This document shows, in pieces, positions 1 to 56,917 of a stretch of DNA of 58,485 bases (the stretch's first letter is position 1; the number at the start of each line of letters is the position of its first letter). Source of the DNA: Candidatus Woesearchaeota archaeon (lineage in GTDB: Archaea; Nanobdellota; Nanobdellia; Pacearchaeales; GW2011-AR1). A program made the position numbers and the translations under genes. The notes beneath the pieces are model-generated. The model saw only the letters and a program-made list of their open reading frames with translations. It was not told the DNA's origin and searched no databases. The stretch covers positions 1 to 58,485 of the forward strand of contig CAYMES010000002.1 of NCBI GenBank assembly GCA_964389765.1, given 5' to 3'.

Positions 1-153
1 CCACTACTGATAGCAAATATGATATTGCATCAAGACCAACAGAATTAAGTTCTGGCGGATATGTTGACATAACAGATTAAAGTTAATTTTTTATTTTTAT
101 TTTTATATTGTTCTTAATAGCTTTTGATTCTCCCCAAAAAAAGATTATTTCAT

Positions 154-176
154 CTTCTTTCTTAGGAAGAAAGAAG
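154..176. other. Perfect 10-bp stem / 3-nt loop hairpin at the outer edge of the cassette array
   Basis: cttctttctt-agg-aagaaagaag read directly. On the minus strand a T-run follows about 11 nt later, so it may terminate array transcription. Confidence 0.3.
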
Positions 177-186
177 CAAAGAAGGA

Positions 187-470
187 CGCGCACACCTCAA
201 ATTTAATGGGATGGCTAAAGGCCCACCTAAACTAAGAGAGATTTTAGAAATATCATAAAGGAGAATTAGAAACTCAAGCCACATTGCATTCTCGCCTACG
301 GCTCGGGTCGTTGAACAAGGCTTAAAGAGTTCGCTCGTTGCACTTAACTCTCCCAAATTAATTTCTCATCCAGCTCGTAAACTCGCGGGAGAAATTAACT
401 TTCCTTATCCCCAATGTTCAACTCAATAAAATTCTAATTGTTAGAAACGAGCGGGGGAGCCCCACCTCAC
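187..470 (-). repeat. Inter-cassette structured element E0 (attC-like, composite)
   Basis: GC-rich non-coding block sharing ordered motifs with E2-E4: gttgaacaRSgMttaaagag, GTTGCAC at 337-343, ctcccaaatt, a perfect 10-bp stem ttaatttctc/gagaaattaa, and aatgttcaactcaat. Its right end GAGCGGGGGAGCCCCAC (449-465) is the inverted partner of 1354-1371. Confidence 0.6.
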
Positions 471-485
471 GCTTCGCGTGAAAAG

Positions 486-1283
486 TCAAAGAATTCTAAA
501 CATCGGAAAATGAGCCCCTTCTTCAGTAGCTATAGCCTTTCTATGTTGTTCAATTCCATTACGTACACCTTGTTCAGCTCTTTGGTTTTTTCCTTCAACT
601 TCGGCAAGTCTTTTTTCCAAAGTTCTCATCTTAATCATTGCGTAAGGAATTTGAGTTGCTTCATAAATTTGTCTTTCTGGAATTCCTAAATAAGGTGTTT
701 CAAAACTCAAACTTAATTTATTTGTTCCAGGCAGAGATAATTTTGCAACTTCTTCTTCAATTCTATATGCAAAATCTGTTGCTTCTGTTGGTGTGTAATC
801 TACTTTTTTTGTTTGTGGAAATGTCCCTTCTCTATTATAACATCTTAAAGCAACTTCCCCATTTTCCTCATCTGTTAAAATATGTTCATCAAAATAATAA
901 CTTTTTCCCAACTCTCCAATCAATAAGGCTAATAAAAATGGATTAGATTCCATATCCTCATTTGTTAATCTGTTTGAAGGTCTGACAGCTCCCATATCTC
1001 TAAATGTTTTCCAACGAACTCTCGTGTAAATCCATTTTTCATCAAAACTAAATCTTTTATCTTTTTGTAAGGTTTCAAGAACACCTTCTAATTGTCCTCT
1101 ATCAAAAACCAAGAATTCTGTGCAATTATGCAAGTGATCTTCTCTTTGAAAACTTTCTCTTGCATATCCACTTTTTTCCAGACCATCATATAGGTCAGGC
1201 ATTGTAGCAATCTCAACAGAAGCAGTTCCATATCTACGAGTATTTGCCCAAATACTATCTAATTCTTGAATTCTTTGACTCAT
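486..1283 (-). CDS. Hypothetical protein (cassette ORF 1)
   Basis: 265-aa ORF with non-repetitive sequence, visibly higher G+C than the host background, and no motif I recognise. It is flanked by a 17-18 nt inverted repeat. Confidence 0.6.
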   Translation of the reverse strand: MSQRIQELDSIWANTRRYGTASVEIATMPDLYDGLEKSGYARESFQREDHLHNCTEFLVFDRGQLEGVLETLQKDKRFSFDEKWIYTRVRWKTFRDMGAVRPSNRLTNEDMESNPFLLALLIGELGKSYYFDEHILTDEENGEVALRCYNREGTFPQTKKVDYTPTEATDFAYRIEEEVAKLSLPGTNKLSLSFETPYLGIPERQIYEATQIPYAMIKMRTLEKRLAEVEGKNQRAEQGVRNGIEQHRKAIATEEGAHFPMFRIL

Positions 1284-1353
1284 ATAATTCTGTTATTTTA
1301 AACACTTTAAAAATCTTTCTATATATTACTACTAAATAATAACTATTAAAATA

Positions 1354-1474
1354 GTGGGGGCTCTCCCGCTCTAAAAAATAGTGCCTTCGGCATTATCTCT
1401 AATTAACAATTAAAATTTTACTCTTCGCCAGCCCTACACTTCGTTTCGGGACACATAACAAGGCTTAGTTTTAA
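1354..1474 (-). repeat. Inter-cassette structured element E1 (attC-like, short)
   Basis: GTGGGGGCTCTCCCGCTC at the left end, a tgcc-ttc-ggca hairpin (1382-1392), and ggcttagttttaat abutting the stop of the next ORF. Confidence 0.45.
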
Positions 1475-1789
1475 TTATTTTTTAGGTGCTAATTCTCTAA
1501 ATCCTTCTAAATTTCTAAAGAATGTATAGCGAACATGGTTAAATTCGGTTCGAGTTTCAAAAACACTTGCAAGAATCATGTTCCCATATGATAGATAATT
1601 GATTCTATCATCTGTTATCTGTGTAGAATTATATGCCAATTCACCTGATTTTATCTCAAATTCTGATTCTTTCACATTATATCTTTTTTGAATGAAAGCC
1701 CTTGTTTCAAGAAAAAAATCCTCAATAGTTTTTGAAACTCTGTGTTGTTCGCCAGTATTTACTATGAGGGGGTTTGGAATTAGATTCAT
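1475..1789 (-). CDS. Hypothetical protein (cassette ORF 2)
   Basis: 104-aa ORF between two structured elements. No recognisable motif. Confidence 0.45.
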   Translation of the reverse strand: MNLIPNPLIVNTGEQHRVSKTIEDFFLETRAFIQKRYNVKESEFEIKSGELAYNSTQITDDRINYLSYGNMILASVFETRTEFNHVRYTFFRNLEGFRELAPKK

Positions 1790-1841
1790 AATAGGATGAA
1801 AATTTCTCTAGTTTAAATAGTTGAATGTATTCACTTAAAAA

Positions 1842-2077
1842 ATAACTCTAAATTTTCCCTTCTGGGACGTTGCACTAAAATTCAATCCCTAACGGGAGAA
1901 TATAACAAGGATTTAGAGGAAAATTCCTGCTGAATTTTCCGAAATTTTTTCTTTCAGAAAAAACTCTCGAGCGTTCCGCAATTTTTCCAGCTCTGACTTC
2001 GTCGAGGGAAAAATTTCTTCACCTCAAGCCCTTCAGGTTGCTTAATCGCGATGTTAGTTTCAATCAGAGTTGGTGCC
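1842..2077 (-). repeat. Inter-cassette structured element E2 (attC-like)
   Basis: Contains GTTGCAC (1869-1875) in a ggga..tccc hairpin, a 9-bp stem aatttttcc/ggaaaaatt around AGCTC..TTCG, and gatgttagtttcaat. Its terminal cagagttggtgcc touches the stop codon at 2078. Confidence 0.6.
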
Positions 2078-2713
2078 TCAAAGTTCCAGCAGTTGTCTTA
2101 ACCCATACAAAGAATGAATTGTAAGAGAGGGATTTATATCAGGGAATTCATGTTCCCCTCTTACTAAAAGAACATCATACACTTGTGCATTTTTTGCAGT
2201 CGCCACATCTTCATCCGCATTTCCTACATAAATAGCTTTGCTTCTGTCCACTCCTAATATTTCTAAACATGATTCTAATCCATGCGGATGTGGTTTTGGT
2301 TTTATTCCATTTGAAGTTTGGGCAAGAATTACACTATCAAAATCTCCTTCGCCCAACATTCCAATTTCAAGAGACGCAATATGCATTGGTGCACCTGTAA
2401 CTATTCCTGTTTTATAGCTATTTTGTCTTAGTTCTTTTACAAAATCCACATCATCATACAATTTTGTGAATTGTCTTCTTAGTTCTGTTGTATCATGTTT
2501 TCTATATGTTTCCCAAAATTGTTTAGGATCTAAGCCAAAATGTTCTTGTATAATTGCATCTCTTCTAGCTTCAAACCAAAACCTATCAATATTACGATTA
2601 GAAGATGTGGCTCCTAAATCCTTTAATGTTTGCCCTAATATTTGATACCTATATTCAGGAGTAGTATGCACAAGTGTTCCATCCAAATCAAAGACAACTG
2701 CTTCATATATCAT
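2078..2713 (-). CDS. HAD-superfamily phosphatase (phosphoglycolate phosphatase-like), cassette ORF 3
   Basis: N-terminal VVFDLDGTLVHT (DxDGT motif I) and C-terminal YVGNADEDVATAK (motif IV), 211 aa. Confidence 0.8.
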   Translation of the reverse strand: MIYEAVVFDLDGTLVHTTPEYRYQILGQTLKDLGATSSNRNIDRFWFEARRDAIIQEHFGLDPKQFWETYRKHDTTELRRQFTKLYDDVDFVKELRQNSYKTGIVTGAPMHIASLEIGMLGEGDFDSVILAQTSNGIKPKPHPHGLESCLEILGVDRSKAIYVGNADEDVATAKNAQVYDVLLVRGEHEFPDINPSLTIHSLYGLRQLLEL

Positions 2714-2750
2714 AATAAAATAGAATTAATAGGACTTATAAAAAGATATC

Positions 2751-2964
2751 GGCACCAACTCTGACTTTGGATTTCCCTTTAGGGATTGTTGCACTAAAAA
2801 TCAATCCCTGCAAGTATTCGGGAGAGTTGAACAGCGATTAAAGAGCTCCGAAACCTTGCAGGTTTCTCCACCCAAATTTTTTCTTCAGCTCTGTTCCGCT
2901 TCGCTACACGAGGAGAACTCAACTTCTGTTAATGCAGATGTTAAACAGCATTTGAGTTGGGGCC
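2751..2964 (-). repeat. Inter-cassette structured element E3 (attC-like)
   Basis: Starts ggcaccaactctg, the perfect inverted copy of 2065-2077. GTTGCAC (2788-2794) sits in the loop of the agggattg/caatccct stem. It also carries the gttgaacagcgattaaagag block and ends gatgttaaacagcatttgagttggggcc. Confidence 0.65.
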
Positions 2965-2965
2965 T

Positions 2966-3585
2966 TTAGGCAGTTTTTCTCTGCAATTCCCTAACTGATA
3001 ATTTAGAAAGAACTTCTTCTAATCTTACTTCTTCAACATTTCTTAAATTATCCGAATTTCTTGAAAAATAATTTACAGGACAAACTGTATCTAAGTTTAG
3101 TTGAGGAACTAATGGCTCTAAAAACTCATAAAGATGTGGGTCGCTCCGATCAATAGCATATGCTACGGGAACATTTACATCTAATCCAAATCTTGTGCGA
3201 AGAGAACTCCTCTCCTAGCACCACTTCGATTTCCTCCTCTCTCGATTATTCGGTAAAGAACTTGTTGATCAATATCTTGTTCTGATAAATCTAATCTCGG
3301 AAATCCAAAATCTCTAGAGTTCTGAAACTGCTCCCATGTAAATGTTTTTTCTGCATCTGCCGTTCTTTGATTTTCATTTTCCATCCAATGACCATAATAA
3401 ACAGAAGGCCATCTCATCTCAGCATAAACTGCTTTAGATTCAATGAAATCTTTTAATTCTCTTGGAAAATGGAACTCTCCTATATCTGTGACAATATGGG
3501 CTTGTCTCAATGATCTATCATATTGTGCTATGAAAGTATCCACTTTATGATTTAAGTCATATTTTTGAAATTTTGAATTTACCAT
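2966..3585 (-). pseudogene. Hypothetical protein, apparently frameshifted (cassette ORF 4)
   Basis: The 134-aa ORF 3181-3585 stops at 3181. A second start-less frame is open from 3214 to 2966 (83 codons, protein-like, ..PVAYAIDRSDPHLYEFLEPLVPQLNLD..) and ends 1 nt from element E3, as in the other cassettes. Confidence 0.5.
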
Positions 3586-3641
3586 TGTTTATTCTTTAAA
3601 CTAGTTATTCTACTAAACTTTAAAAACTTATTGATTTCATA

Positions 3642-3797
3642 GACCTTAACTCAAACGCTTTGGATTTTCTACAAAAATTCTCGGGGAAGTTGCACTTCGC
3701 TCTCCCAAATTTTTTTCTCAGCTCTCACTCGCTACGTTCGTGGAGGAGAAAAAAACTTCCCTTAAGCCCGATGTTAGTTGCAATTTGAGATTTGGGC
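3642..3797 (-). repeat. Inter-cassette structured element E4 (attC-like)
   Basis: gaccttaactcaaacgc left end. 45 nt (3653-3697) are nearly identical to 5048-5092 and include GTTGCAC (3689-3695). It has a 10-bp stem tttttttctc/gagaaaaaaa and ends gatgttagttgcaatttgagatttgggc. Confidence 0.65.
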
Positions 3798-3853
3798 TAA
3801 AAGATAGTCAAAATCTTTGATTTTGAAAAAAATAATAAAAAAGAGGTTGGTAT

Positions 3854-4207
3854 CTAAAAATTAAGTGGTTCTTGAACACCTGATTCTCGTATCTTGTCAG
3901 TCAATTCTTTTCTGACACCTGAATCTTTAATTCTTCTTGCTTTTGTAAGACCAACAGATTGTTCAGTACCTGAAGCATGTAATGGCTCTAATAGTTCAAC
4001 CACATTAACAGTTCTGACTCTTGAACCAAAAGATGTATCATATTCATTTGTTTGAACAAGCACGTTCATACCTTTATATTGCATTACATCCTCTCTTAAA
4101 GTTACAATATGATTATCTCTTAAGGGTCCTTTTGTACAGCTCGCATGTAGATATTCCATTTTATTTACCTCCGTATATTTATTTCTAACAAAACCAAAGA
4201 TATACAA
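3854..4207 (-). CDS. Hypothetical protein (cassette ORF 5)
   Basis: 117-aa ORF between E4 and E5. No recognisable motif. Confidence 0.45.
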   Translation of the reverse strand: MYIFGFVRNKYTEVNKMEYLHASCTKGPLRDNHIVTLREDVMQYKGMNVLVQTNEYDTSFGSRVRTVNVVELLEPLHASGTEQSVGLTKARRIKDSGVRKELTDKIRESGVQEPLNF

Positions 4208-4208
4208 G

Positions 4209-4361
4209 TATTTAAATCTTTCGGTTTTTTACTACTATTAAGTTAATAAAAATAACTCCAGAATTCTGAACTAAAAATCCTTCGGATTTTGTTATGCTGC
4301 GATCTCCTCGTTTCACTCATAGGAGTGTATAATAAATGTTATGCTTAATCTAGATTTAGGC
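4209..4361 (-). repeat. Inter-cassette structured element E5 (attC-like, short)
   Basis: Perfect 7-bp hairpin aaaatcc-ttc-ggatttt (4274-4290). It ends aatgttatgcttaatctagatttaggc directly against the stop codon at 4362. Confidence 0.5.
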
Positions 4362-5000
4362 TCATTTGTATGGAATTATTAAAGAATCATTCATTCCATC
4401 AGATTTCCAAGATTGCGCAAAAACCTTTTTTGAAATCTTTTGATATGCTTTGTTTTTTGGATAAATATTGTGAAGATAAAAGTTCTTATCATCAAATCCA
4501 ACTACCACCACATAGTGTGGCCAAAGTTTATCTACATTACATGGGACAGCAATATTGAGATATAATAATACTGGCTTTTTTTGTCTAATATAATTTTCTA
4601 TATCTTTTAATGTTGGATTTTTTCTTATGAATTTATATCCAGAAAATTTTTCGCATTTCTTCTTGAATTTTTTTTCATATTTTTTTGCTCCAAATTTTCT
4701 TAGAAATTCTTTAAATCTTTTTGAATATTCTTTTTGTTCATAAGAAAAAGTATCATATTTATTTATGTAATCCACCTTAAATCCTTTTGATAGACAAAAA
4801 AAGACCAAACCTTCTGGAGAAGTTCCTCCTGAATTTTCTGCCTTCCCTTTTCTTTTTGGTGTATCTGCCCTGCCAACAATTTCTTCAACAGAACTTCTGT
4901 CTTTATAATATCTCAATATTGAAGCTAATGCTATTGGGCCACACCAACCATTACCCTTCCACTTTTTCAAATTTCTTACAAATGGAACCTTTATCTTCAT
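4362..5000 (-). CDS. Papain-fold cysteine peptidase, C39-like (cassette ORF 6)
   Basis: NGWCGPIALASILRYY (catalytic Cys context) and WPHYVVVVGFDDKNFYLHN (His context), typical of the Peptidase_C39_2 type. 212 aa. Confidence 0.55.
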   Translation of the reverse strand: MKIKVPFVRNLKKWKGNGWCGPIALASILRYYKDRSSVEEIVGRADTPKRKGKAENSGGTSPEGLVFFCLSKGFKVDYINKYDTFSYEQKEYSKRFKEFLRKFGAKKYEKKFKKKCEKFSGYKFIRKNPTLKDIENYIRQKKPVLLYLNIAVPCNVDKLWPHYVVVVGFDDKNFYLHNIYPKNKAYQKISKKVFAQSWKSDGMNDSLIIPYK

Positions 5001-5037
5001 TATGAATAAAAAAGAGGTTTTGTTTTATAATATTATC

Positions 5038-5150
5038 GTCTAAATCTAAACGCTTTGGATTCTCTACAAAAATTCTCGGGGAAGTTGCACTTTTCTCCTT
5101 CTAGTCTTAAGGATATTTAACAGGAGTTAATTTCAATTTAGAACAAGTCC
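5038..5150 (-). repeat. Inter-cassette structured element E6 (attC-like)
   Basis: gtctaaatctaaacgc left end (inverted partner of 4345-4361), 45 nt shared with E4 through GTTGCAC (5084-5090), then a different right half ending gttaatttcaatttagaacaagtcc. Confidence 0.55.
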
Positions 5151-5193
5151 TATCTTGTAGAATAGAACTTTGCCCAAAAGAAAAATACTGTAC

Positions 5194-5490
5194 TTATTGT
5201 TTTCCGAAGCTTAATTCTCTAGTTTGTTCTGTATATGCTTTTCCAGCTTTGTAATTATTTCCAATTCTTGATCTTCCATTCTTATCTTGATTTGGAAAGA
5301 AATGAGGATTATAAAATGGACTAACATGCTCATTGTCATAAAGAACACTTCCATCTTTTGTAAGAATAGATATGATTGCAACAGGTAATCCAAGAAATGG
5401 AAATCCTATTGTACTTTTAATAATTTTTCTTCCCTGAAAAATATCCCTCTCTTGTATCTCTTCAGGAACTCTTTCTAAATGAGTTACCAC
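5194..5490 (-). CDS. Hypothetical protein (cassette ORF 7, GTG start)
   Basis: 98-aa ORF with only a GTG start available. It is flanked by the direct repeat TTAGAACAAG (about 5137 and about 5497). Confidence 0.35.
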   Translation of the reverse strand: MVTHLERVPEEIQERDIFQGRKIIKSTIGFPFLGLPVAIISILTKDGSVLYDNEHVSPFYNPHFFPNQDKNGRSRIGNNYKAGKAYTEQTRELSFGKQ

Positions 5491-6017
5491 TAAATTAGAA
5501 CAAGGTGTTACCTTCTTTAATTTTACTCTGATTGATTTTTGTTAATTCATTTGATTAACATAAGTAATACTCACAAATTTTCCAAGATATTCTGGAAGTC
5601 TTTCCATTGCTTCAATTCTTTCAGCTTGATTCATCATTTTAATTACTTATAAGCCAAATATAAACTAATTTCTACAAATCTTTTTATTTATTACCACTTT
5701 AAAGTTACTTTCTTTAGAAAGATTTAAATATAGGAAAAAGATATTTTTTGTTATGTATATAGATAATTCTGCACAAGAAGATTATGAAAAAGCTCAAGTT
5801 TTTAGAATAAATGTAGCTTTAACTAGTTCAGCAGATGTAAGAGAAAATTGGTTAAAAGCAGCTACTAATTTAAAGCAAGCAGCTGATATAAATCAAAAAA
5901 CTAAATAGGAAAAGCAGAAGCTTAAAGAAGCTCTGCTTAAAGCAAGAGCAATTTTAAGTTATTTAAATTAGATAAATATTTCAAAAACTTTATAATCTAG
6001 CTTCTTATTTTATTTTT

Positions 6018-18651: not shown

Positions 18652-20232
18652 ATGGTTTTTAATAGAAGATTAAGTAATTTTTTGGAAAAAATATTTAAAG
18701 CTCGCAGAGATTTTTTAAATTCTACTAATGATCCTAAGTATGAACAAAGAAAAATCCTTTTAAAAATAATTAGAAATAATGAAGATAGTGTGTTCGGAAA
18801 AGATTATGGTTTTTCAAAAATTAATTCTATAGGTGATTTTTTAAAACATGTGCCTATAACCAATTATGATTTTATAAAAGAATATATTGATAGAGAAAAA
18901 AAAGGTGAAGCTGGACAACTAACTTCTAAAAAAGTTAAGATGTTTGCTTTAACTTCTGGAACTGTTTCTGATGTTAAGTCTATTCCTGTTACAGAAGATT
19001 ATATAAATTCTTATAGGGCAGGAACATGGATATGGATATCTTCTTTATTAATAGATCATCCTAGATTTTTTCCTAAAACATTAACTATTGCTTCTCCAAA
19101 AAGAGAAAAAGAGACATCAGCAGGAATCCCTTGTGGTTCTGTTTCAGGACTTTTTCATGAAGAACAAAGCAGGATTGTAAAGGCTTTATATGTGTCTCAA
19201 TATCCTATGTTTGAAATTCCAAATCCAGAATCAAAATATTATACTTTAACAAAAGCTGCTGTTGAAAATAATGTTCATCATATTAATACTGCTAATCCTA
19301 TAACTATTTTAAAAATCTGCAATATAATAAAAAATAATCCAGGAAAATTAATTAAAGATATATATGACGGAACAATTTCTGCGGAAATTCCTAAGGATTT
19401 AAGAAGTAGAATAAAAACAAAATCAAATAAGAGAAGAGCAAAGAAGTTAGAAGAACTTTTAAATAAAGATATGTTTAAACCAGAGTTTATCTGGCCAGAT
19501 TTAGGAGTAATAGGGTGTTGGAGAGGAGGAACTCAATACTTGTTTTTAGAAAGATTTCCAGAACATTTTGGAGATATTAGTGTAAGAGATATTGGATTGT
19601 TAGCTTCTGAAGGTAGGATGACTATTCCTATTTCAGATAACACAAGTTCTGGAATTTTAGATATAAAGAATAGTTTTTTTGAGTTTATTCCTGAATCTGA
19701 AATCCAAAATAAAAACCCGCAGGTTTTAAGAACAGAACAACTAGAAAAAGGAGAAAATTATTTTATTTTATTAACGACACAATCAGGGTTATATAGATAT
19801 AATATTAAAGATCTGGTAAAAGTTACAGGTTTTTATAATAATACTCCTGAACTAGCTTTTTTAAATAAAGGAAGCCAGATATCTTCTATAGTAGGTGAGA
19901 AAATTTCAGAATACCAGGTTATTAATTCTTATAAAAAAGCAAAACCTAATTCAAACCAAGAATTTTTTATATTTCCTGAACTAATTAATGAGATTCCTAA
20001 TTATGTTTTTTGTTCAATTTCTAATATAGAAGATAGATTTTTAGATGATTTTGATGGTGAATTGAGGAAAAGAAATATTGAATATGATTCTAGAAGGAAA
20101 TCTGGAAGGCTTGGGCCAATATCTTCTAGGACAATTTCTAAACAAGAATTTGATAATATTACTGGAAAAAATACCGGAAAATCTCAGTTTAAATTTAAAT
20201 ATTTAAGAAAAGAATTGAACCTTGTTAGGTAG
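18652..20232 (+). CDS. GH3-family acyl-acid amido synthetase-like adenylating enzyme
   Basis: FALTSGTVSDVKSIPVT (GH3 TSGT..K.IP motif), YRYNIKDLV, 526 aa. Confidence 0.65.
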   Translation: MVFNRRLSNFLEKIFKARRDFLNSTNDPKYEQRKILLKIIRNNEDSVFGKDYGFSKINSIGDFLKHVPITNYDFIKEYIDREKKGEAGQLTSKKVKMFALTSGTVSDVKSIPVTEDYINSYRAGTWIWISSLLIDHPRFFPKTLTIASPKREKETSAGIPCGSVSGLFHEEQSRIVKALYVSQYPMFEIPNPESKYYTLTKAAVENNVHHINTANPITILKICNIIKNNPGKLIKDIYDGTISAEIPKDLRSRIKTKSNKRRAKKLEELLNKDMFKPEFIWPDLGVIGCWRGGTQYLFLERFPEHFGDISVRDIGLLASEGRMTIPISDNTSSGILDIKNSFFEFIPESEIQNKNPQVLRTEQLEKGENYFILLTTQSGLYRYNIKDLVKVTGFYNNTPELAFLNKGSQISSIVGEKISEYQVINSYKKAKPNSNQEFFIFPELINEIPNYVFCSISNIEDRFLDDFDGELRKRNIEYDSRRKSGRLGPISSRTISKQEFDNITGKNTGKSQFKFKYLRKELNLVR

Positions 20233-45554: not shown

Positions 45555-46616
45555 TTAGTTTTTGTTTTTTAATTTATAAAGTTGTTCTCCTAATTTTTTT
45601 ATTTTTTCAGAATCTTTAAGTGTTTTTATCCATTGTTTTGGAAAGATGTTTCCATGTTTAGCTCCTGCTAAAGCTCCATATATTGCTCCAGTAGTGTCAC
45701 AATCTCCTCCATAATTTATTGTTTCAATTAATCCATCTAAAGGTTTATTCCAGTATTTTTGAAACATAAATAATGCAAAAGGATAACTTTCAAAAGCAAG
45801 AGCAGAATTTCCAAGTTTATAAAAAGCATTATCTGAACTTGTTTTTTTGTTTTGAGAAATCCATCTTAGTTTTGATAAAAGACTTCCTCTTTCATATAAT
45901 TTATCTTCAGGAGAAAGAGGTAGTTCATTTTTTTCACAACATTGTAATAAGCTGTTTAAAAATTTTTGTTTTGAAAGGTTATTATCATTCTTTTGAAGTA
46001 AAGTGTAAACTGCATGAGCTTGGACAATACCTCCTGCAATTGCTCTTTTATCTTTATGCGTAGCTTTTGCAACTTGTTCTGAAACTGTTATTCCTAAGTT
46101 ATATTTGCCTGTTGCATGCATGTAAATTCCAATAGGAGAGATTTTCATAATTGGCCCATTTCCTAATCCAGGTGTTATTCCAGATGAATATACGCTAGAC
46201 CCTTTTAAGATATTTTCAAATGCTTTTTTTGTTGTTCCTCCAAATCCTCCTCTAATATGTCCATCTTCTTGCTTGCATTTTTTGTAAGCTTGAACTTGTT
46301 TTTTGCATAAATCTTCTAAATCAAGAGTTTTATTTTGAATAATTGATTTAGCCATTGCAATAGTAAGAATTGTGTCATCTGTATATTCTCCAAGACAGAG
46401 ATCTCTGGTATAATATTTAAGTTCTCCGTGTTCATCTTTTTTTATTATATTGCCTTTATCATCTTTTGGTATTAATGGAGCAATAGGGCAAGTAACCCTG
46501 CCTTCTGGAACATATTTCTGAATATGTTTTTTAGACCAAGCTTCAACTGGCATCCCTAAACAATCCCCAATTCCACACCCTATAAGTGTTGCAATATATT
46601 TTTCTTTAGTTTTCAT
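45555..46616 (-). CDS. ADP-ribosylglycohydrolase (ARH/DraG family)
   Basis: GCGIGDCLGMPVE, YTDDT and GGDCDTTGAIYGALAGA motifs. Confidence 0.85.
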   Translation of the reverse strand: MKTKEKYIATLIGCGIGDCLGMPVEAWSKKHIQKYVPEGRVTCPIAPLIPKDDKGNIIKKDEHGELKYYTRDLCLGEYTDDTILTIAMAKSIIQNKTLDLEDLCKKQVQAYKKCKQEDGHIRGGFGGTTKKAFENILKGSSVYSSGITPGLGNGPIMKISPIGIYMHATGKYNLGITVSEQVAKATHKDKRAIAGGIVQAHAVYTLLQKNDNNLSKQKFLNSLLQCCEKNELPLSPEDKLYERGSLLSKLRWISQNKKTSSDNAFYKLGNSALAFESYPFALFMFQKYWNKPLDGLIETINYGGDCDTTGAIYGALAGAKHGNIFPKQWIKTLKDSEKIKKLGEQLYKLKNKN

Positions 46617-53209: not shown

Positions 53210-56200
53210 TTAAAATAATTTCTTTTGTCTGCTTCCTTGAACAATTTCTTCTATAATTTCTTCAACATTTACATTAAAAACTTTGAAGATATTTTCAACA
53301 GCAGGTTTTATTTGATTGTTTAAATAATAAGAGATATCATATCTACCTTTTTCATTTGGAAGTTTTACTCTTTCTCTTACTAATTGTTTTGTTTTGCTTT
53401 TTCCATTTTTTGTTTCTGCAACATAATATTCTATTAAATCTCCTTGTTCTGCTCCTATTCCTTGTTCTTCCATTTTTAAAGCAGCTATAACATGAGGACC
53501 TTTAGCTATATATTCAGAAAGAGGTTTTTTTAACTGTGTTTTAATAATTAATTGTTTTTTTTCTATATTTTTATTTTTTACTTTTTTAATAGTTTTTTTT
53601 AGATATTTAAGAGCAGATTTTTCATTTCCATTTTTTAAAATAAGTTCTAGAACTTTATTTTGTAATTCACGAGCAAGATTACACCAGTCTCTTCTTACTG
53701 TTTCAAATCCCCTTACTTTTAATTGTTTGTTATAATCAATTAAAGCATATTTTTTCTTTGCTCCTGTTGAAACAGTTCTTTTTGAAACAAATAATCCTCT
53801 TTTATAAAAATCTTCTAATTCAAGTTCCATTATTCCAGGCAACTTAGAGTTTAGTTTATTTAAAAATTCAAGAGTTTGTTTTTGAGTTTTGTTATTTAAG
53901 AGAAACGCGATTGAGTCTGTGTTATGAACTAAGACATAGTTAGCAAAGAATCTATGATTATCTCTAACCTCAATATCATAAATGTAATTAGGAGTTTTTA
54001 TTTTTTCAATATTTTTAACATTTTGTATATCAAATTCAAATTGATTTACTATACTTTTTTTCAAACTTTTTGAAGTTACTTGTGCTCTTTTATTTTTTCT
54101 TTCTAATAAAAATCCAATTTTTTCTGCAAATGCTTCTTTATTTTTTACTATTATATTTTTCGAATAACTATCAGAGCTATAAATTCTATCTTTAGTTTTA
54201 TAAGTGTTTTTAGTATTTTCTTTAAATACAGAATGAGAAATTCCTATCCGATATAGTAGTTTCCTAGCTTCTTTAATATAATCTTCTCTAACTGAGGTAT
54301 ATTTAATTATTGGAGCTCCTCCTCTTAACATCACACATCCATTAGCTGAAAATAATCCTCTAAGGAATGAAGCAATATTTTCTTCTTTTTCATAAAATAA
54401 CCATCTAGGAATAATCTTTTTTTTGCTTTTCCTACAGTTATTAAAAACCAAATTCACTAGTTTAAGCCCATTAACTACAATATCTCCTTTTTCTCTTTCC
54501 CATATATTTTTAATATAACCTTTTTTTTGTAAAGGAGTTATTAACTTGTTTTTTAATTCTTTAGTGTCTTTTCCTGCAGAAATCCTTAAATAATAATTCT
54601 TGCCATATTTATTAGGCATAAAACTTCCATCACCAATAAAATAACCTAAGAATTCATATATCTCTTTTGGATACTTTTTCTCTTTAGAATTTTCACAATT
54701 AATTTTTTTTAATGTGATTATACTATTTGCTTTTTCCTTTACCTCTCCAGGTTTTATTTCAATGAGCCTCTTAATTGGATTTTGTTTTTTTTCATTACTT
54801 TGATTGTGTTTTGTGGATTGATAACCAATTAAAGAGTGATCTTCAGTAACATCAATATACCAATGATTTGTGAACCAAACCCTATAAATTTTTTTATTGC
54901 ATTTATGCCTCATTACATAAACAATTGGTTTAAACACAGAATTTCCCTCCTTATCAATAGTTAGCACCTCAATATTCTTTTTAAAATTATATTCTTTTCC
55001 AAGTCCTGTTTTTTTATCTATCCTTTCAAAAATTTTTTCAATTTCTTCTTCATATACATTGCCTTTTTTTCTAATAAAGATTTTTGTTTTTCCATCAATA
55101 CTGTCAGAATATATAATTTCATAACCTTGTTTTTTTATATTTTCAATTGCATTTAGTATGTTTTCTTTTGCTAATTTAGCAGTAGATGCAGCTGCCTCTC
55201 TGCAATAATATCTTGCTCCAAAATATCCTTGATATCCATAAGCTGCATTTGCTAATAATTTATAAGCATTGCTTCTTGCTTTTGTTATTGGATTTTTATT
55301 TTTATTATATTGTCTTTTATATTGTTTTCTTAAATTAATTATTTCTTTTAACATTTTAGGAAAAAATCCTTGTTTTTTTGAGAAATAAACATTTCCTTCT
55401 TTGTCTAGATTTACTTTAATGATATCTTTATTTTTTAATGTAGATTTATTTTCTATTAGTGTGGAAAGAGATAAATTATATGATACAATAACAGAAGCAT
55501 ACATTGATGTGAAATCAAACATCCCAATATTTTCATATAATCCAGGCAAGGGTTGGAAGACAAATGCTCCTTCATATTTTCCTTTTGCTCTTCTTTTGCC
55601 TATTTCATCGTGAAGAGGACGTTTTTCTGCAATTTCATTATAAAGATGCAAGTTATGTAAGATATAATCTTCTACATGTGCTGACATGCTGTTTCTTGTA
55701 ATTCTGAAAATTGGTTCTTGGATAATATTGGTAAATTCTTGTATATCTGGCCATGTTTTTTTAAATAACAAGTAAGTTAGTTTTGAATCTTGTAAATTAT
55801 ATTTAAAGAAATCTTTCCAGTCATTTTTATCTAGATATTCTAATTTTGAAAAATCAAAATCATGTTTTTTCTCTCCCAATAATTCAGAAGCTATATCATT
55901 TAATCCAAGAGTCTCGCTCTGGAGGTATTGAGAATAAACTGATTCTATAAATCTATAAATGTCTATATGAATTATGCCAGTTATTTTTCCTTTACTTAAT
56001 CTTCCTTTTGAAAATATTGGTTGGCTGTTGTCTAAACCAATATCTAATTTAATGTTGTTATTTTCAGCTGCTGCTCTTAGATATGGTAAGTCAAATCCAT
56101 CTGAAAAATAACCAACTAAAAAATCTGGGTCATAGTCTTTTACATATTTTACAAATTGTTTTAACATTTGTCTTTCACTTGGAAAACTTTGTACAAAATC

Positions 56201-56917
56201 AGGGTTTTTTGAATCAGCAGATTTCCATGTTAAAACTTTTTTAAATTCCTTTTCTTTATTATGTTTATCAGAAGTTTTACCATATAAAGAAATCATTAGG
56301 ATGTCACCTTTTCCAATTTCAAATTTACTTGTTTCTATATCAAATGCAAGTATTTTTGGTTTGAATTTTAGATTTTTTTGTTCTTTTTGTTTTAGTTTTT
56401 TAAAAGAATTTAATTTATAGCAGTTTAGGTCAAGGCATTCAGATAAATAGCCAAAATCTTCACTATCTAACTTTTCAATGTTTACATTATGCCATTTTAA
56501 AGGCAAGATGTTTTTATCCATAATATATTTTGTAATTAGACGCATATCATATTCTCTTCTTGCATATATCTCAGAAAAATCAAGTTCATCTGCAACAGCA
56601 TGAGAATCTTTATAGTTTTCAACAAATATTTTAATGGCTTTATGTTTTTTTCCGAGAAAATTTTTATCATGAATTTCAGTTTTAAGAACTTTTGTTTTTC
56701 TTCCTGCTCTTTCAACCTGGATTTTTTCAATTTTTTGTTTTATTTTTTGAATTTTTTTATCACTTGTATTTTGTTTTAATATTGCCCAGAAATTTGGTTC
56801 ATAACTATCTATTATACAGATTTTTTCATTTTGAGAAGTTCTTCCAAATATCCTTATGTAGTTTTTACCTTTCCAGTCAAAATAATCATAATCAAGAGGT
56901 ATAAATTTGAGGTTCAT
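53210..56917 (-). CDS. polB: Family B DNA polymerase (intein-containing precursor)
   Basis: Exo I FDIET, motif A DFTSMYASVI, motif B KLLANAAYGY, and motif C YSD/TDS split by the intein. The extein is 841 aa. Confidence 0.93.
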   Translation of the reverse strand: MNLKFIPLDYDYFDWKGKNYIRIFGRTSQNEKICIIDSYEPNFWAILKQNTSDKKIQKIKQKIEKIQVERAGRKTKVLKTEIHDKNFLGKKHKAIKIFVENYKDSHAVADELDFSEIYARREYDMRLITKYIMDKNILPLKWHNVNIEKLDSEDFGYLSECLDLNCYKLNSFKKLKQKEQKNLKFKPKILAFDIETSKFEIGKGDILMISLYGKTSDKHNKEKEFKKVLTWKSADSKNPDFVQSFPSERQMLKQFVKYVKDYDPDFLVGYFSDGFDLPYLRAAAENNNIKLDIGLDNSQPIFSKGRLSKGKITGIIHIDIYRFIESVYSQYLQSETLGLNDIASELLGEKKHDFDFSKLEYLDKNDWKDFFKYNLQDSKLTYLLFKKTWPDIQEFTNIIQEPIFRITRNSMSAHVEDYILHNLHLYNEIAEKRPLHDEIGKRRAKGKYEGAFVFQPLPGLYENIGMFDFTSMYASVIVSYNLSLSTLIENKSTLKNKDIIKVNLDKEGNVYFSKKQGFFPKMLKEIINLRKQYKRQYNKNKNPITKARSNAYKLLANAAYGYQGYFGARYYCREAAASTAKLAKENILNAIENIKKQGYEIIYSDSIDGKTKIFIRKKGNVYEEEIEKIFERIDKKTGLGKEYNFKKNIEVLTIDKEGNSVFKPIVYVMRHKCNKKIYRVWFTNHWYIDVTEDHSLIGYQSTKHNQSNEKKQNPIKRLIEIKPGEVKEKANSIITLKKINCENSKEKKYPKEIYEFLGYFIGDGSFMPNKYGKNYYLRISAGKDTKELKNKLITPLQKKGYIKNIWEREKGDIVVNGLKLVNLVFNNCRKSKKKIIPRWLFYEKEENIASFLRGLFSANGCVMLRGGAPIIKYTSVREDYIKEARKLLYRIGISHSVFKENTKNTYKTKDRIYSSDSYSKNIIVKNKEAFAEKIGFLLERKNKRAQVTSKSLKKSIVNQFEFDIQNVKNIEKIKTPNYIYDIEVRDNHRFFANYVLVHNTDSIAFLLNNKTQKQTLEFLNKLNSKLPGIMELELEDFYKRGLFVSKRTVSTGAKKKYALIDYNKQLKVRGFETVRRDWCNLARELQNKVLELILKNGNEKSALKYLKKTIKKVKNKNIEKKQLIIKTQLKKPLSEYIAKGPHVIAALKMEEQGIGAEQGDLIEYYVAETKNGKSKTKQLVRERVKLPNEKGRYDISYYLNNQIKPAVENIFKVFNVNVEEIIEEIVQGSRQKKLF
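53921..55102 (-). mobile_element. 394-aa intein with LAGLIDADG homing-endonuclease domain in PolB motif C
   Basis: Starts SIDGKTKIF after ..IIYSD, has block B VTEDHSL, LAGLIDADG motifs LGYFIGDGSF and FLRGLFSANGCV, and ends YVLVHN followed by TDSIAF. Confidence 0.88.

Follow-up and report, generated by a model that had tools for sequence, protein, structure and literature searches.

A probable Xer-associated, integron-like gene cassette array in a contig of a Candidatus Woesearchaeota archaeon

The textbook example of a device that stores single genes and shuffles them is the integron, which is defined by one clade of integrases together with attC sites. Plasmid gene modules may also be surrounded by pdif sites, which are inverted, plain 28-bp duplexes. 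Here we describe seven open reading frames (ORFs) and the structured elements that separate them (E0-E6) at one end of a 58,485-nucleotide stretch from a Candidatus Woesearchaeota archaeon (contig CAYMES010000002.1; hereafter the window), which is the entire public contig, the public record extending no further. In our assessment the region is probably a mobile gene cassette array of an integron-like, non-integron, Xer-associated system that occurs mainly in metagenome-assembled genomes (MAGs) labelled DPANN.

Clusters of attC sites lacking integron-integrases (CALINs) have been reported in Nanoarchaeota, including in a MAG of the GTDB species to which one of our comparison loci (L017) belongs, and nine archaeal attCs were used experimentally in the same study (Ghaly et al. 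2022, PMC9668308). In CTX-phi, a folded single-stranded attP is recombined by XerCD, with tandem build-up at dif (PMC5357621). The pdif modules of Acinetobacter plasmids are genes bracketed by XerC/D-binding dif-like sites (PMC11705084). Archaeal XerA resolves dimers at a 28-bp dif (11+6+11), and some species carry a xerA/dif module (PMC5357621). A full-text literature search returned no description of a system such as the one reported here, an absence that falls short of proof of novelty.

A three-block pattern common to E0, E3 and E4, for which about one chance match is expected (our estimate from pattern length and database size), was found at 25 loci in species-representative contigs (one genome per species). 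The family was found in 24 loci; L016 matched the pattern without matching the hidden Markov model (HMM). Iterated nhmmer searches yielded 59 copies of the element over its 5' two-thirds, plus further 3' domains. Where a locus carries several copies, all of them point the same way (19 of 19 multi-copy loci, window included; 34 extra copies, p ~2^-34 by our calculation), with a median copy-to-copy spacing of 910 nt and exactly one ORF of at least 60 aa in 23 of the 30 inter-element intervals. The cassette genes include DNA methylases, GmrSD/HNH nucleases, methyltransferases, hydrolases and peptidases, and in relatives 27 of 39 cassette ORFs lie antisense to the element. Hosts are mostly labelled as Woese-, Pace-, Nano- or Nanohalarchaeota MAGs. 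Some element loci are labelled Methanosarcinales, Gammaproteobacteria or Nitrospira, at 30-36% G+C; L009-L011, L014, L016, L027, L028 and L030 have non-DPANN or 'bacterium' labels, mostly with ~30-35% G+C and DPANN-like elements. Contigs with non-DPANN labels are probably mis-binned DPANN contigs. Many pattern matches are located at contig ends, and scans of viral contigs with two element patterns gave no match. Near arrays in L018 (3811-4770), L023 (2636-3601) and L026 (2659-3618) lies a gene for a ~320-aa protein with two AsnC/Lrp-type winged-helix domains, which could be an accessory DNA-binding factor.

Read in element sense (minus in the window), the 5' part consists of an arm X' of 12-18 nt that is specific to the cassette, ATTG-N4-TAAC-ATC and an 11-nt stem arm. 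An optional central domain of ~115 nt follows, a three-way junction closed by the 11-bp covarying stem, in the order GAAGTT, variable hairpin, AATTTGGG(A/T)GAG, second hairpin and complementary 11-nt arm. The 3' part runs from C-TGTTA-N5 through two hairpins flanking AG(T/C)GCA(A/G)CG to ...A(A/G)AGT and a terminal arm X, which belongs to the next cassette; this 3' domain, with its AG(T/C)GCA(A/G)CG block and GNA-tipped hairpins, measures 70-90 nt. The motif ATTG-N4-TAAC (reverse complement GTTA-N4-CAAT) is thus internal to the element and resembles a core site. Short-form cores (E1, E5, E6) have the form arm(...TAA), 6 nt, (TTA...)arm, and long forms have ~115 nt between the arms.

The arms carry the footprint of recombination. 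The 12-18 nt that follow ...AGT of element k are the reverse complement of the 12-18 nt that precede ATTG of element k+1 in 20 of 25 adjacent pairs, with a mean of 12.9 matches against 7.0 in controls (control 95th percentile 9); five of the six window pairs obey this outer-arm rule. Each cassette is therefore bracketed by its own inverted repeat. The initial annotation had read the outer inverted repeats as attC-like core sites with R boxes; they are instead variable cassette arms that pair across the ORF and not mainly within the element. An inner arm behaves similarly. The 5 nt after TGTTx pair perfectly with the 5 nt before xAAC of the next downstream site in 13 of 37 cases, and at four or more of the five positions in 21 of 37, whereas the corresponding counts against the element's own 5' side are 2 and 5 of 42 (random pairs, 3% and 11%). 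N5 thus pairs with the next site and not with its own 5' side, which makes array sites composite and places their junction in TAAC(ATC), between N5 and the central stem. Composite sites are evident from both comparisons in relatives and from the outer arms only in the window.

Cassette mobility is indicated in the case of ORF3, which encodes a HAD-family hydrolase. Its homologues share 82-93% protein identity, and in the three other contexts that were fetched (L114, L115-118 and L119/120; 82-91% identity) all neighbours differ, in line with the reordering of cassettes between genomes that the initial annotation had proposed to look for. The conserved unit comprises X (CAGAGTTGGYGCC), a TATA-like box, the ORF, X' (GGCRCCAACYCTG) and ATTR-AAAN-xAAC, and similarity ends exactly after xAAC. 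The perfect arms of ORF3, together with its close homologues, suggest that this cassette arrived later than the others in the window. Conversely, the flanks of ORF5 are homologous to L015:1700-2560, and the ORFs enclosed there and in the window are unrelated, with no homology between them. The stretch GCAGAGT-TTTTTTG-TATAG-CAAAAAA-TTTCGTTGAACAT at L041:780-860 resembles, judged from the sequence, an 'empty' junction, in which a 3' block, X and X' joined by a 5-nt loop, and the xer-proximal partial site would follow one another.

Shuffling of this kind could also be expected of dispersed repeats resembling miniature inverted-repeat transposable elements (MITEs) or repetitive extragenic palindromes, exchanged by homologous recombination without a dedicated site-specific enzyme. 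The copies are indeed modular mosaics (E4 has a deletion between its AGTGCAAC blocks and the stem arms of E3 mismatch), a near-identical central domain occurs between differing flanks, one boundary of the HAD cassette lies at the conserved block AGT|X, and many matches lie at contig ends, as those of repeats do. We nevertheless regard this explanation as unlikely. The orientation of copies is uniform within every multi-copy locus, and their position and orientation are fixed relative to xer, with a partial site before that gene. Moreover, the arms vary from cassette to cassette yet are complementary in pairs, whereas ends recognised by a transposase would be conserved and homologous exchange creates no complementarity; nor is there a recurrent transposase among the 134 neighbouring ORFs. 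Several other classes were considered and set aside. CRISPR-like repeats and C/D-box RNAs were dropped; bulge-helix-bulge intron processing stems did not fit arms that are perfect helices without bulges; no genes of IS200/IS605-derived elements or of TnpB/IS110 guide RNA systems occur among the neighbouring ORFs; and retrons were discarded on finding no reverse transcriptase.

Next to the arms, the fold of the element is conserved. The TAACA/TGTTA helix and the 11-bp stem are 97.8% paired over 23 distinct copies, and compensatory double changes occur in 11 of 16 stem pairs, a value equalled by none of 500 shuffles. Stem mismatches are G.T in 35 cases and A.C in two, and of the C(GNA)G hairpin tips 232 are on the sense strand and 7 on the antisense strand. 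The G.T excess and the tips on a single strand indicate that one strand is under a folding constraint. GNA triloops with a C:G closing pair form the classic DNA mini-hairpins of very high stability, and the tips point towards single-stranded DNA (ssDNA), short of proof. The site reconstructed for the circle junction of L043 has a predicted ssDNA fold of -38.8 kcal/mol (z -7.4), with outer, inner and central stems and two hairpins; the same element in array form reaches -25.4 kcal/mol (z -3.3). Good folding is thus predicted for the reconstructed cognate form only, array-form and decayed copies being modelled to fold poorly. The stable hairpins that the initial annotation had expected were found, and the whole-element minimum free energy folds of the window copies are weak (z -0.25 to -2.2).

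Covarying stems, wobbles on one strand that are also compatible with G.U, and conserved junction sequences (GAAGTT, AATTTGGG) are equally what one would expect of structured-RNA genes or of untranslated-region modules common to a set of genes, acting in processing, in stability, as terminators or in a guide-like manner; in the window the elements are, in addition, sense-oriented and lie directly after stop codons. An RNA role may coexist with recombination. As the explanation of the array, we give it little credence: no Rfam family corresponds to the elements even at E<=5, cassette ORFs in relatives are predominantly antisense to the element, and recombination of DNA leaves footprints such as arms that pair across an ORF, composite sites and an abrupt break at xAAC. 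The C(GNA)G triloop tips, too, are unusually stable in DNA. With Rfam 15, tRNA-Lys was the sole match in the window at the gathering score, and nothing meaningful was found at E<=5 in positions 1-6000.

Arrays lie directly 5' of a XerA-type recombinase gene, from which a partial attI-like site separates them. Among 134 ORFs around elements, Phage_integrase was matched four times. A xer gene is present in 4 of 24 element loci (one with xer fragments), always downstream of the array on the element strand. The array-linked recombinases score 245-246 bits on the XerA model NF040815 (cutoff 220) and 196-206 bits on the IntI model TIGR02249 (cutoff 265), PRK15417 likewise remaining below its cutoff; the IntI models match in two pieces, indicating that the IntI-specific insertion is missing. 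The ~320-aa ORFs beside elements were considered as integrases and proved to encode methylases, winged helix-turn-helix proteins, TruB and others. In a reverse search, 80 metagenomic Xer loci were fetched. Elements were present in 16 of these, 14 times upstream on the same strand, never downstream on the same strand and twice on the opposite strand; the 14 represent the upstream same-strand cases among 54 Xer loci with at least 500 nt upstream, and close relatives had such elements in 8 of 16 loci. In 26 of 62 loci the 260 nt upstream of xer contain the motif ATT[GTA]N4[TG]AAC, compared with 5 of 62 on the opposite strand. The motif is positioned 90-180 nt before the xer start and is followed by a locus-specific perfect palindrome, which in L017 and L041 has dif geometry (11-12 bp/6 bp/11-12 bp). 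In L043, L080 and L041 the arm in front of the partial site pairs with the final complete element. By its position the xer-proximal partial element appears analogous, not homologous, to attI; it is absent from the window. For the initial annotation, the lack of any recombinase in related genomes with such elements would have spoken against its reading; in related genomes a tyrosine recombinase with an attI-like partial site is found at a fixed end of the array. Read on the opposite strand, the order is xer (pointing left), partial site, cassette-element, cassette-element, which is the integron layout with GTTA-N4-CAAT replacing GTTRRRY.

The system resembles integrons in several respects. Tandem, co-oriented sites separate mostly single-gene cassettes, the sites are composite, and recombinase-less arrays exist; a tyrosine recombinase gene stands at one end and points away from the cassettes, a partial site that may correspond to the primary one lying in between; the coding strand of that gene is the strand of the sites that folds; and the core GTTA.../...TAAC resembles GTTRRRY/RYYYAAC. 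An ordinary CALIN, with divergent attC sites served by an IntI encoded elsewhere, would share the architecture, the co-orientation and the composite sites, GTTA-N4-CAAT and TAACAG resemble the two core sites GTTRRRY and RYYYAAC, and Nanoarchaeota do have CALINs, L017's GTDB species included (Ghaly et al. 2022, PMC9668308). Three lines of evidence make it a very improbable account all the same. A covariance model built as a proxy from the nine published archaeal attCs with variable loops trimmed, which is not the IntegronFinder model, gave no match on E0-E6 (best window matches, E>=0.04, lie elsewhere) and nothing at E<=1 in 25 related loci (L009-L033). The recombinases at the array ends lack the IntI insertion, and they exceed the XerA cutoff and fall below those for IntI. 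Finally, the elements show strong sequence conservation across lineages and carry an extra 3' domain, unlike attCs, and their complementary arms of 12-18 nt are specific to the cassette. The cassettes also differ from those of integrons in that they apparently carry their own promoters and occur in both orientations. Membership of the integrons proper, which the initial annotation had entertained, was thus not borne out. Its own refutation criteria came out mixed, in that attC-model matches were absent and stable hairpins, shuffled cassettes and a linked recombinase all turned up.

Xer-dependent systems offer the nearest parallels in enzymology. Mobile elements that make use of Xer to integrate (IMEXs), such as CTX-phi, share a housekeeping-looking Xer, here linked to the arrays by genomic position, and a site that probably acts as single-stranded DNA folded into a forked, branched stem; insertions pile up in tandem beside one chromosomal site, and in L017 and L041 a palindrome of dif geometry abuts the partial site. 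The units here are single-gene cassettes and not phages or islands, the hosts are archaea with XerA alone, and the elements belong to a conserved family marked by a three-way-junction domain. As in pdif modules, small gene modules are bounded by Xer-type sites in varied contexts, and the short-form cores have the arrangement arm, 6 nt, arm (E5: AGCATAA-CATTTA-TTATACAC); by contrast, the sites here are directly repeated, carry long structured extensions and have arms specific to the cassette, and the arrays are chromosomal, beside xer. With archaeal XerA/dif they share a protein that passes the XerA equivalog model and dif-like palindromes just upstream of its gene, whereas XerA/dif as described comes without cassette arrays or structured elements.

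The features of the window array are as follows, all on the minus strand. For elements, the basis of detection is given in brackets.

E0, long form, 260-443, minus strand (similarity search): X' 428-443; ATTGAGTTGAAC 416-427; 3' block GGCTTGAGT 272-280; X 260-271
E1, short form, 1404-1485, minus strand (3'-domain HMM, E 0.017): X' 1476-1485, overlapping the ORF2 end; ATTAAAACTAAG 1464-1475; GGCGAAGAGT 1420-1429; X 1404-1419
E2, long form, 1834-2077, minus strand (similarity search): X' 2065-2077; ATTGAAACTAAC 2053-2064; TGTTATATTC within 1898-1910; AAAATTTAGAGT 1845-1856; X 1834-1844
E3, long form, 2751-2964, minus strand (similarity search): X' 2952-2964; ATGCTGTTTAAC 2940-2951; TGTTCAACTC within 2824-2836; AATCCAAAGT 2764-2773; X 2751-2763
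E4, long form, 3642-3797, minus strand (comparison with the full-length L015:2353 and L030:846 copies): X' 3785-3797; ATTGCAACTAAC 3773-3784; AATCCAAAGCGT 3655-3666; X 3642-3654
E5, short form, 4258-4361, minus strand (similarity to L015, 3'-domain HMM): X' 4350-4361; ATTAAGCATAAC 4338-4349; GGATTTTTAGT 4270-4280; X 4258-4269
E6, short form, 5038-5150, minus strand (repeat family and similarity search): X' 5138-5150; ATTGAAATTAAC 5126-5137; AATCCAAAGCGT 5050-5061; X 5038-5049
Cassette ORF1, 486-1283, minus strand: 265 aa, no Pfam match; arms 1404-1419 and 428-443, 15/16 complementary
Cassette ORF2, 1475-1789, minus strand: 104 aa, no Pfam match; arms 1834-1844 and 1476-1485, 9/10 complementary
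Cassette ORF3, 2078-2713, minus strand: HAD-family hydrolase (Pfam); arms 2751-2763 and 2065-2077, 13/13 complementary
Cassette ORF4, frameshifted pseudogene, 2966-3585, minus strand: open frame 3181-3585 (134 aa); arms 10/13 complementary
Cassette ORF5, 3854-4207, minus strand: likely start ATG 4159, 101 aa, no Pfam match; arms decayed, 6/12 complementary
Cassette ORF6, 4362-5000, minus strand: C39-like peptidase (Pfam), 212 aa; arms 5038-5049 and 4350-4361, 10/12 complementary
Cassette ORF7, 5194-5490, minus strand: 98 aa, GTG start, no Pfam match
Promoter-like module, 1311-1342, also 4214-4245 and 5676-5707, minus strand (repeat family): consensus TAGTAGTAA..GAAAGATTT.TAAA
Conserved non-coding module past the last element, array end, 107-271, minus strand (nhmmer: L020 twice, L023, L046, L013)

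The seven co-oriented ORFs of the initial annotation are present in the ORF calls at these coordinates, an all-against-all BLASTP search agreed with it that they lack similarity to one another, and only ORF3 and ORF6 have Pfam matches, in keeping with the mostly unrecognised functions it had described. Two gene models had to be revised. ORF4 is not a whole ORF, since its 620 nt contain a frameshift near 3180-3200 and its C-terminal portion runs on in a different frame to 2966; for ORF5, a reading of the sequence makes ATG 4159, after GGAGG, a more probable start than TTG 4207. The spacers are non-coding, as had been stated, and measure 154-288 nt, E0 being longer; the elements within them are 105-245 nt long, attC hairpins measuring 57-141 bp. 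Stop codons, described earlier as lying 0-1 nt from the elements in four cassettes, abut or overlap them for ORF2, ORF3, ORF4 and ORF6. That the spacers are richer in G+C also holds, but the contrast is modest (elements 0.30-0.40, cassette ORFs 0.29-0.35, remaining window 0.27). An ordinary, vertically inherited operon or gene cluster with structured intergenic regions, which the co-orientation and tight spacing of the ORFs might bring to mind, is hardly credible, since the ORFs are functionally unrelated, each appears to have a TATA-like box on its 5' side, homologues of ORF1 and ORF3 have entirely different neighbours elsewhere, and the G+C content of the array region is above that of the rest of the contig.

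All seven spacers belong to one element family. The blocks that the initial annotation considered common to all are borne out for E0, E2, E3, E4 and E6, which are mutually similar (nhmmer E 1e-6 to 1e-9), and not significantly for E1 and E5. E5, however, matches L015:1814-1908 with E 4e-13, and the 3'-domain HMM yields E 7e-4 for E5, next to the value listed for E1. Because of the modular build of the elements, aligning the seven spacers with MAFFT was uninformative. Element motifs are confined to positions 1-5500 of the window; AGTGCAACNNCCC, for example, has 4 matches against 0.05 expected. The central domain is missing from the short forms E1, E5 and E6, whose cores are AAACTAA-GCCTTG-TTATGTG (within 1452-1470) in E1 and AAATTAA-CTCCTG-TTAAATAT (within 5113-5132) in E6, that of E5 lying within 4325-4344. 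The 3' end of E1 was judged by eye to be similar to the L108 element, and the 3' halves of E6 and E4 are 94% identical. E0 is near-identical to L020:3895-4108 (E 6e-49) and to L023:774-973.

The central stems of all four long-form copies in the window are defective. In E0, the central domain extends to TGTTC at about 308-320 and the central stem pairs at 9/12 positions; the stem of E2 is degenerate to the same extent (9/12). E3 looks chimeric, as its central-stem arms mismatch (CTGCATTAACAG against CTCTTTAATCGC); by eye, its right arm fits the left arm of E0 instead. In E4, the 3' strand of the central stem is missing owing to the deletion between the two AGTGCAAC blocks; compared with L015:2353-2600, about 60 nt have apparently been deleted there (3672-3700). 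On a reading of these sequences, the E4 deletion is apparent evidence that homologous exchange between conserved blocks reshapes elements. No recombinase gene is present, the long-form stems are broken or deleted and ORF4 is frameshifted; hence the window array is probably old and decaying, comparable to a CALIN. In agreement with the initial annotation, a tblastn search of the 58 kb with two Xer proteins (E<=1) found no tyrosine recombinase.

Inside its X/X' arms, ORF1 is flanked by a further inverted repeat, rich in G+C, at 1354-1371 and 449-465 (GAGCGGGAGAGCCCCCAC and GTGGGGCTCCCCCGCTC); nested arm pairs of this type are present in L041 and L015 too. Homologues of ORF1 (37-50% identity) occur in non-array settings (L001-L008), and as no elements are found in these contexts ORF1 is an ordinary gene elsewhere. 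Exact-protein look-ups of ORF1 and ORF3 found neither on record. ORF3 has a TATA-like box, TTTTTATAA, ~25-30 nt 5' of its ATG. The promoter-like module, a putative promoter by its TATA-like sequence, is placed between arm X and the cassette ORF, and it also occurs 5' of an unrelated ORF in L015:1900-1960, which suggests that some elements may carry an outward promoter. ORF7 is the member most distant from the presumed recombinase end of the array; a partner arm upstream of it was sought and none was found. At the other end, the module after E0 comprises ~150 nt, with the hairpin CTTCTTTCTTCCTAAGAAAGAAG (154-176) and GATGAAATAATCTTTTTTTGGGG at its end. An ORF-less cassette, a small RNA and a feature of the array end are all possible readings of it, and GGGGAGAATCAAAAGCTATTAAGAACAAT (107-135) is a possible degenerate terminal site. 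A convergent plus-strand ORF ends at 80, beyond the array end.

The remainder of the contig is archaeal in content, with a family-B DNA polymerase containing an intein, a CDC48-type ATPase, a seryl-tRNA synthetase and one tRNA-Lys; G+C is mostly 25-29% and reaches 29-37% within the first 5 kb. The polymerase gene (53210-56917, minus strand) is split by an intein with a LAGLIDADG homing-endonuclease domain. A gene at 18652-20232 (plus strand) encodes a GH3-family (acyl-acid amido synthetase-like) protein, a family that is to our knowledge unusual among DPANN archaea. An ADP-ribosylglycohydrolase gene is a cassette gene beside an element in L009 (1135-2109), and a homologue of this family lies outside the array, at 45555-46616 of the window.

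Several observations weigh against a mobile, Xer-associated cassette system. On the side of the HAD cassette away from the xAAC break, conservation starts at AGT|X and excludes the upstream element body; this boundary allows more than one extent of the mobile unit, or number of exchange points. The copies used for covariation had been pre-selected for at least 10/12 pairing, and the strand asymmetry of G.T pairs and GNA tips fits RNA as well as ssDNA. Arrays were found at only 26% of Xer loci, a figure limited by HMM sensitivity and short contigs. The enzyme resembles the ordinary chromosome-dimer resolvase XerA, and its proximity to arrays could reflect a shared chromosomal region instead of catalysis. 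All data derive from MAGs and metagenome contigs, in which repeats can be mis-assembled, a concern countered by the recurrence of the same patterns across many independent assemblies. For the window itself, the inner-arm rule fails in all six adjacent pairs, and with defective stems and no recombinase the activity of this array is doubtful.

With these reservations, we consider a mobile cassette array the best description of the region. The array of cassettes that the initial annotation had described, with structured elements resembling recombination sites and a recombinase nowhere in view, stands on the co-oriented arrays, the arms and the xAAC breakpoints in relatives; upheld, too, is its suggestion that the cassette system of this DPANN-type archaeon could be divergent or undescribed. 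By analogy with integron attC sites and with CTX phage and dif, a cassette would be excised as a circle. On one DNA strand, X' would pair with X and N5-TAACA with TGTTA-N5, a Xer-type recombinase would cut near TAA|C, and strand exchange would take place with the site beside the recombinase gene or with another element. Extending this, we lean cautiously towards a widespread, undescribed gene-capture platform of DPANN archaea, an independently arisen analogue of the integron that would combine a XerA-type, possibly housekeeping, enzyme with a folded ssDNA site closed by cassette-specific stems, and of which the window would be a recombinase-less relic.

If this is correct, a Xer-type enzyme together with a larger structured site would mean that cassette platforms evolved more than once, and XerA biochemistry would gain new recombination substrates. 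Such arrays would be missed by current integron finders, and they would explain why metagenome assemblies break at these regions. For the DPANN archaea, whose small genomes rely on acquired accessory genes, the system would provide a mechanism for gene flux.

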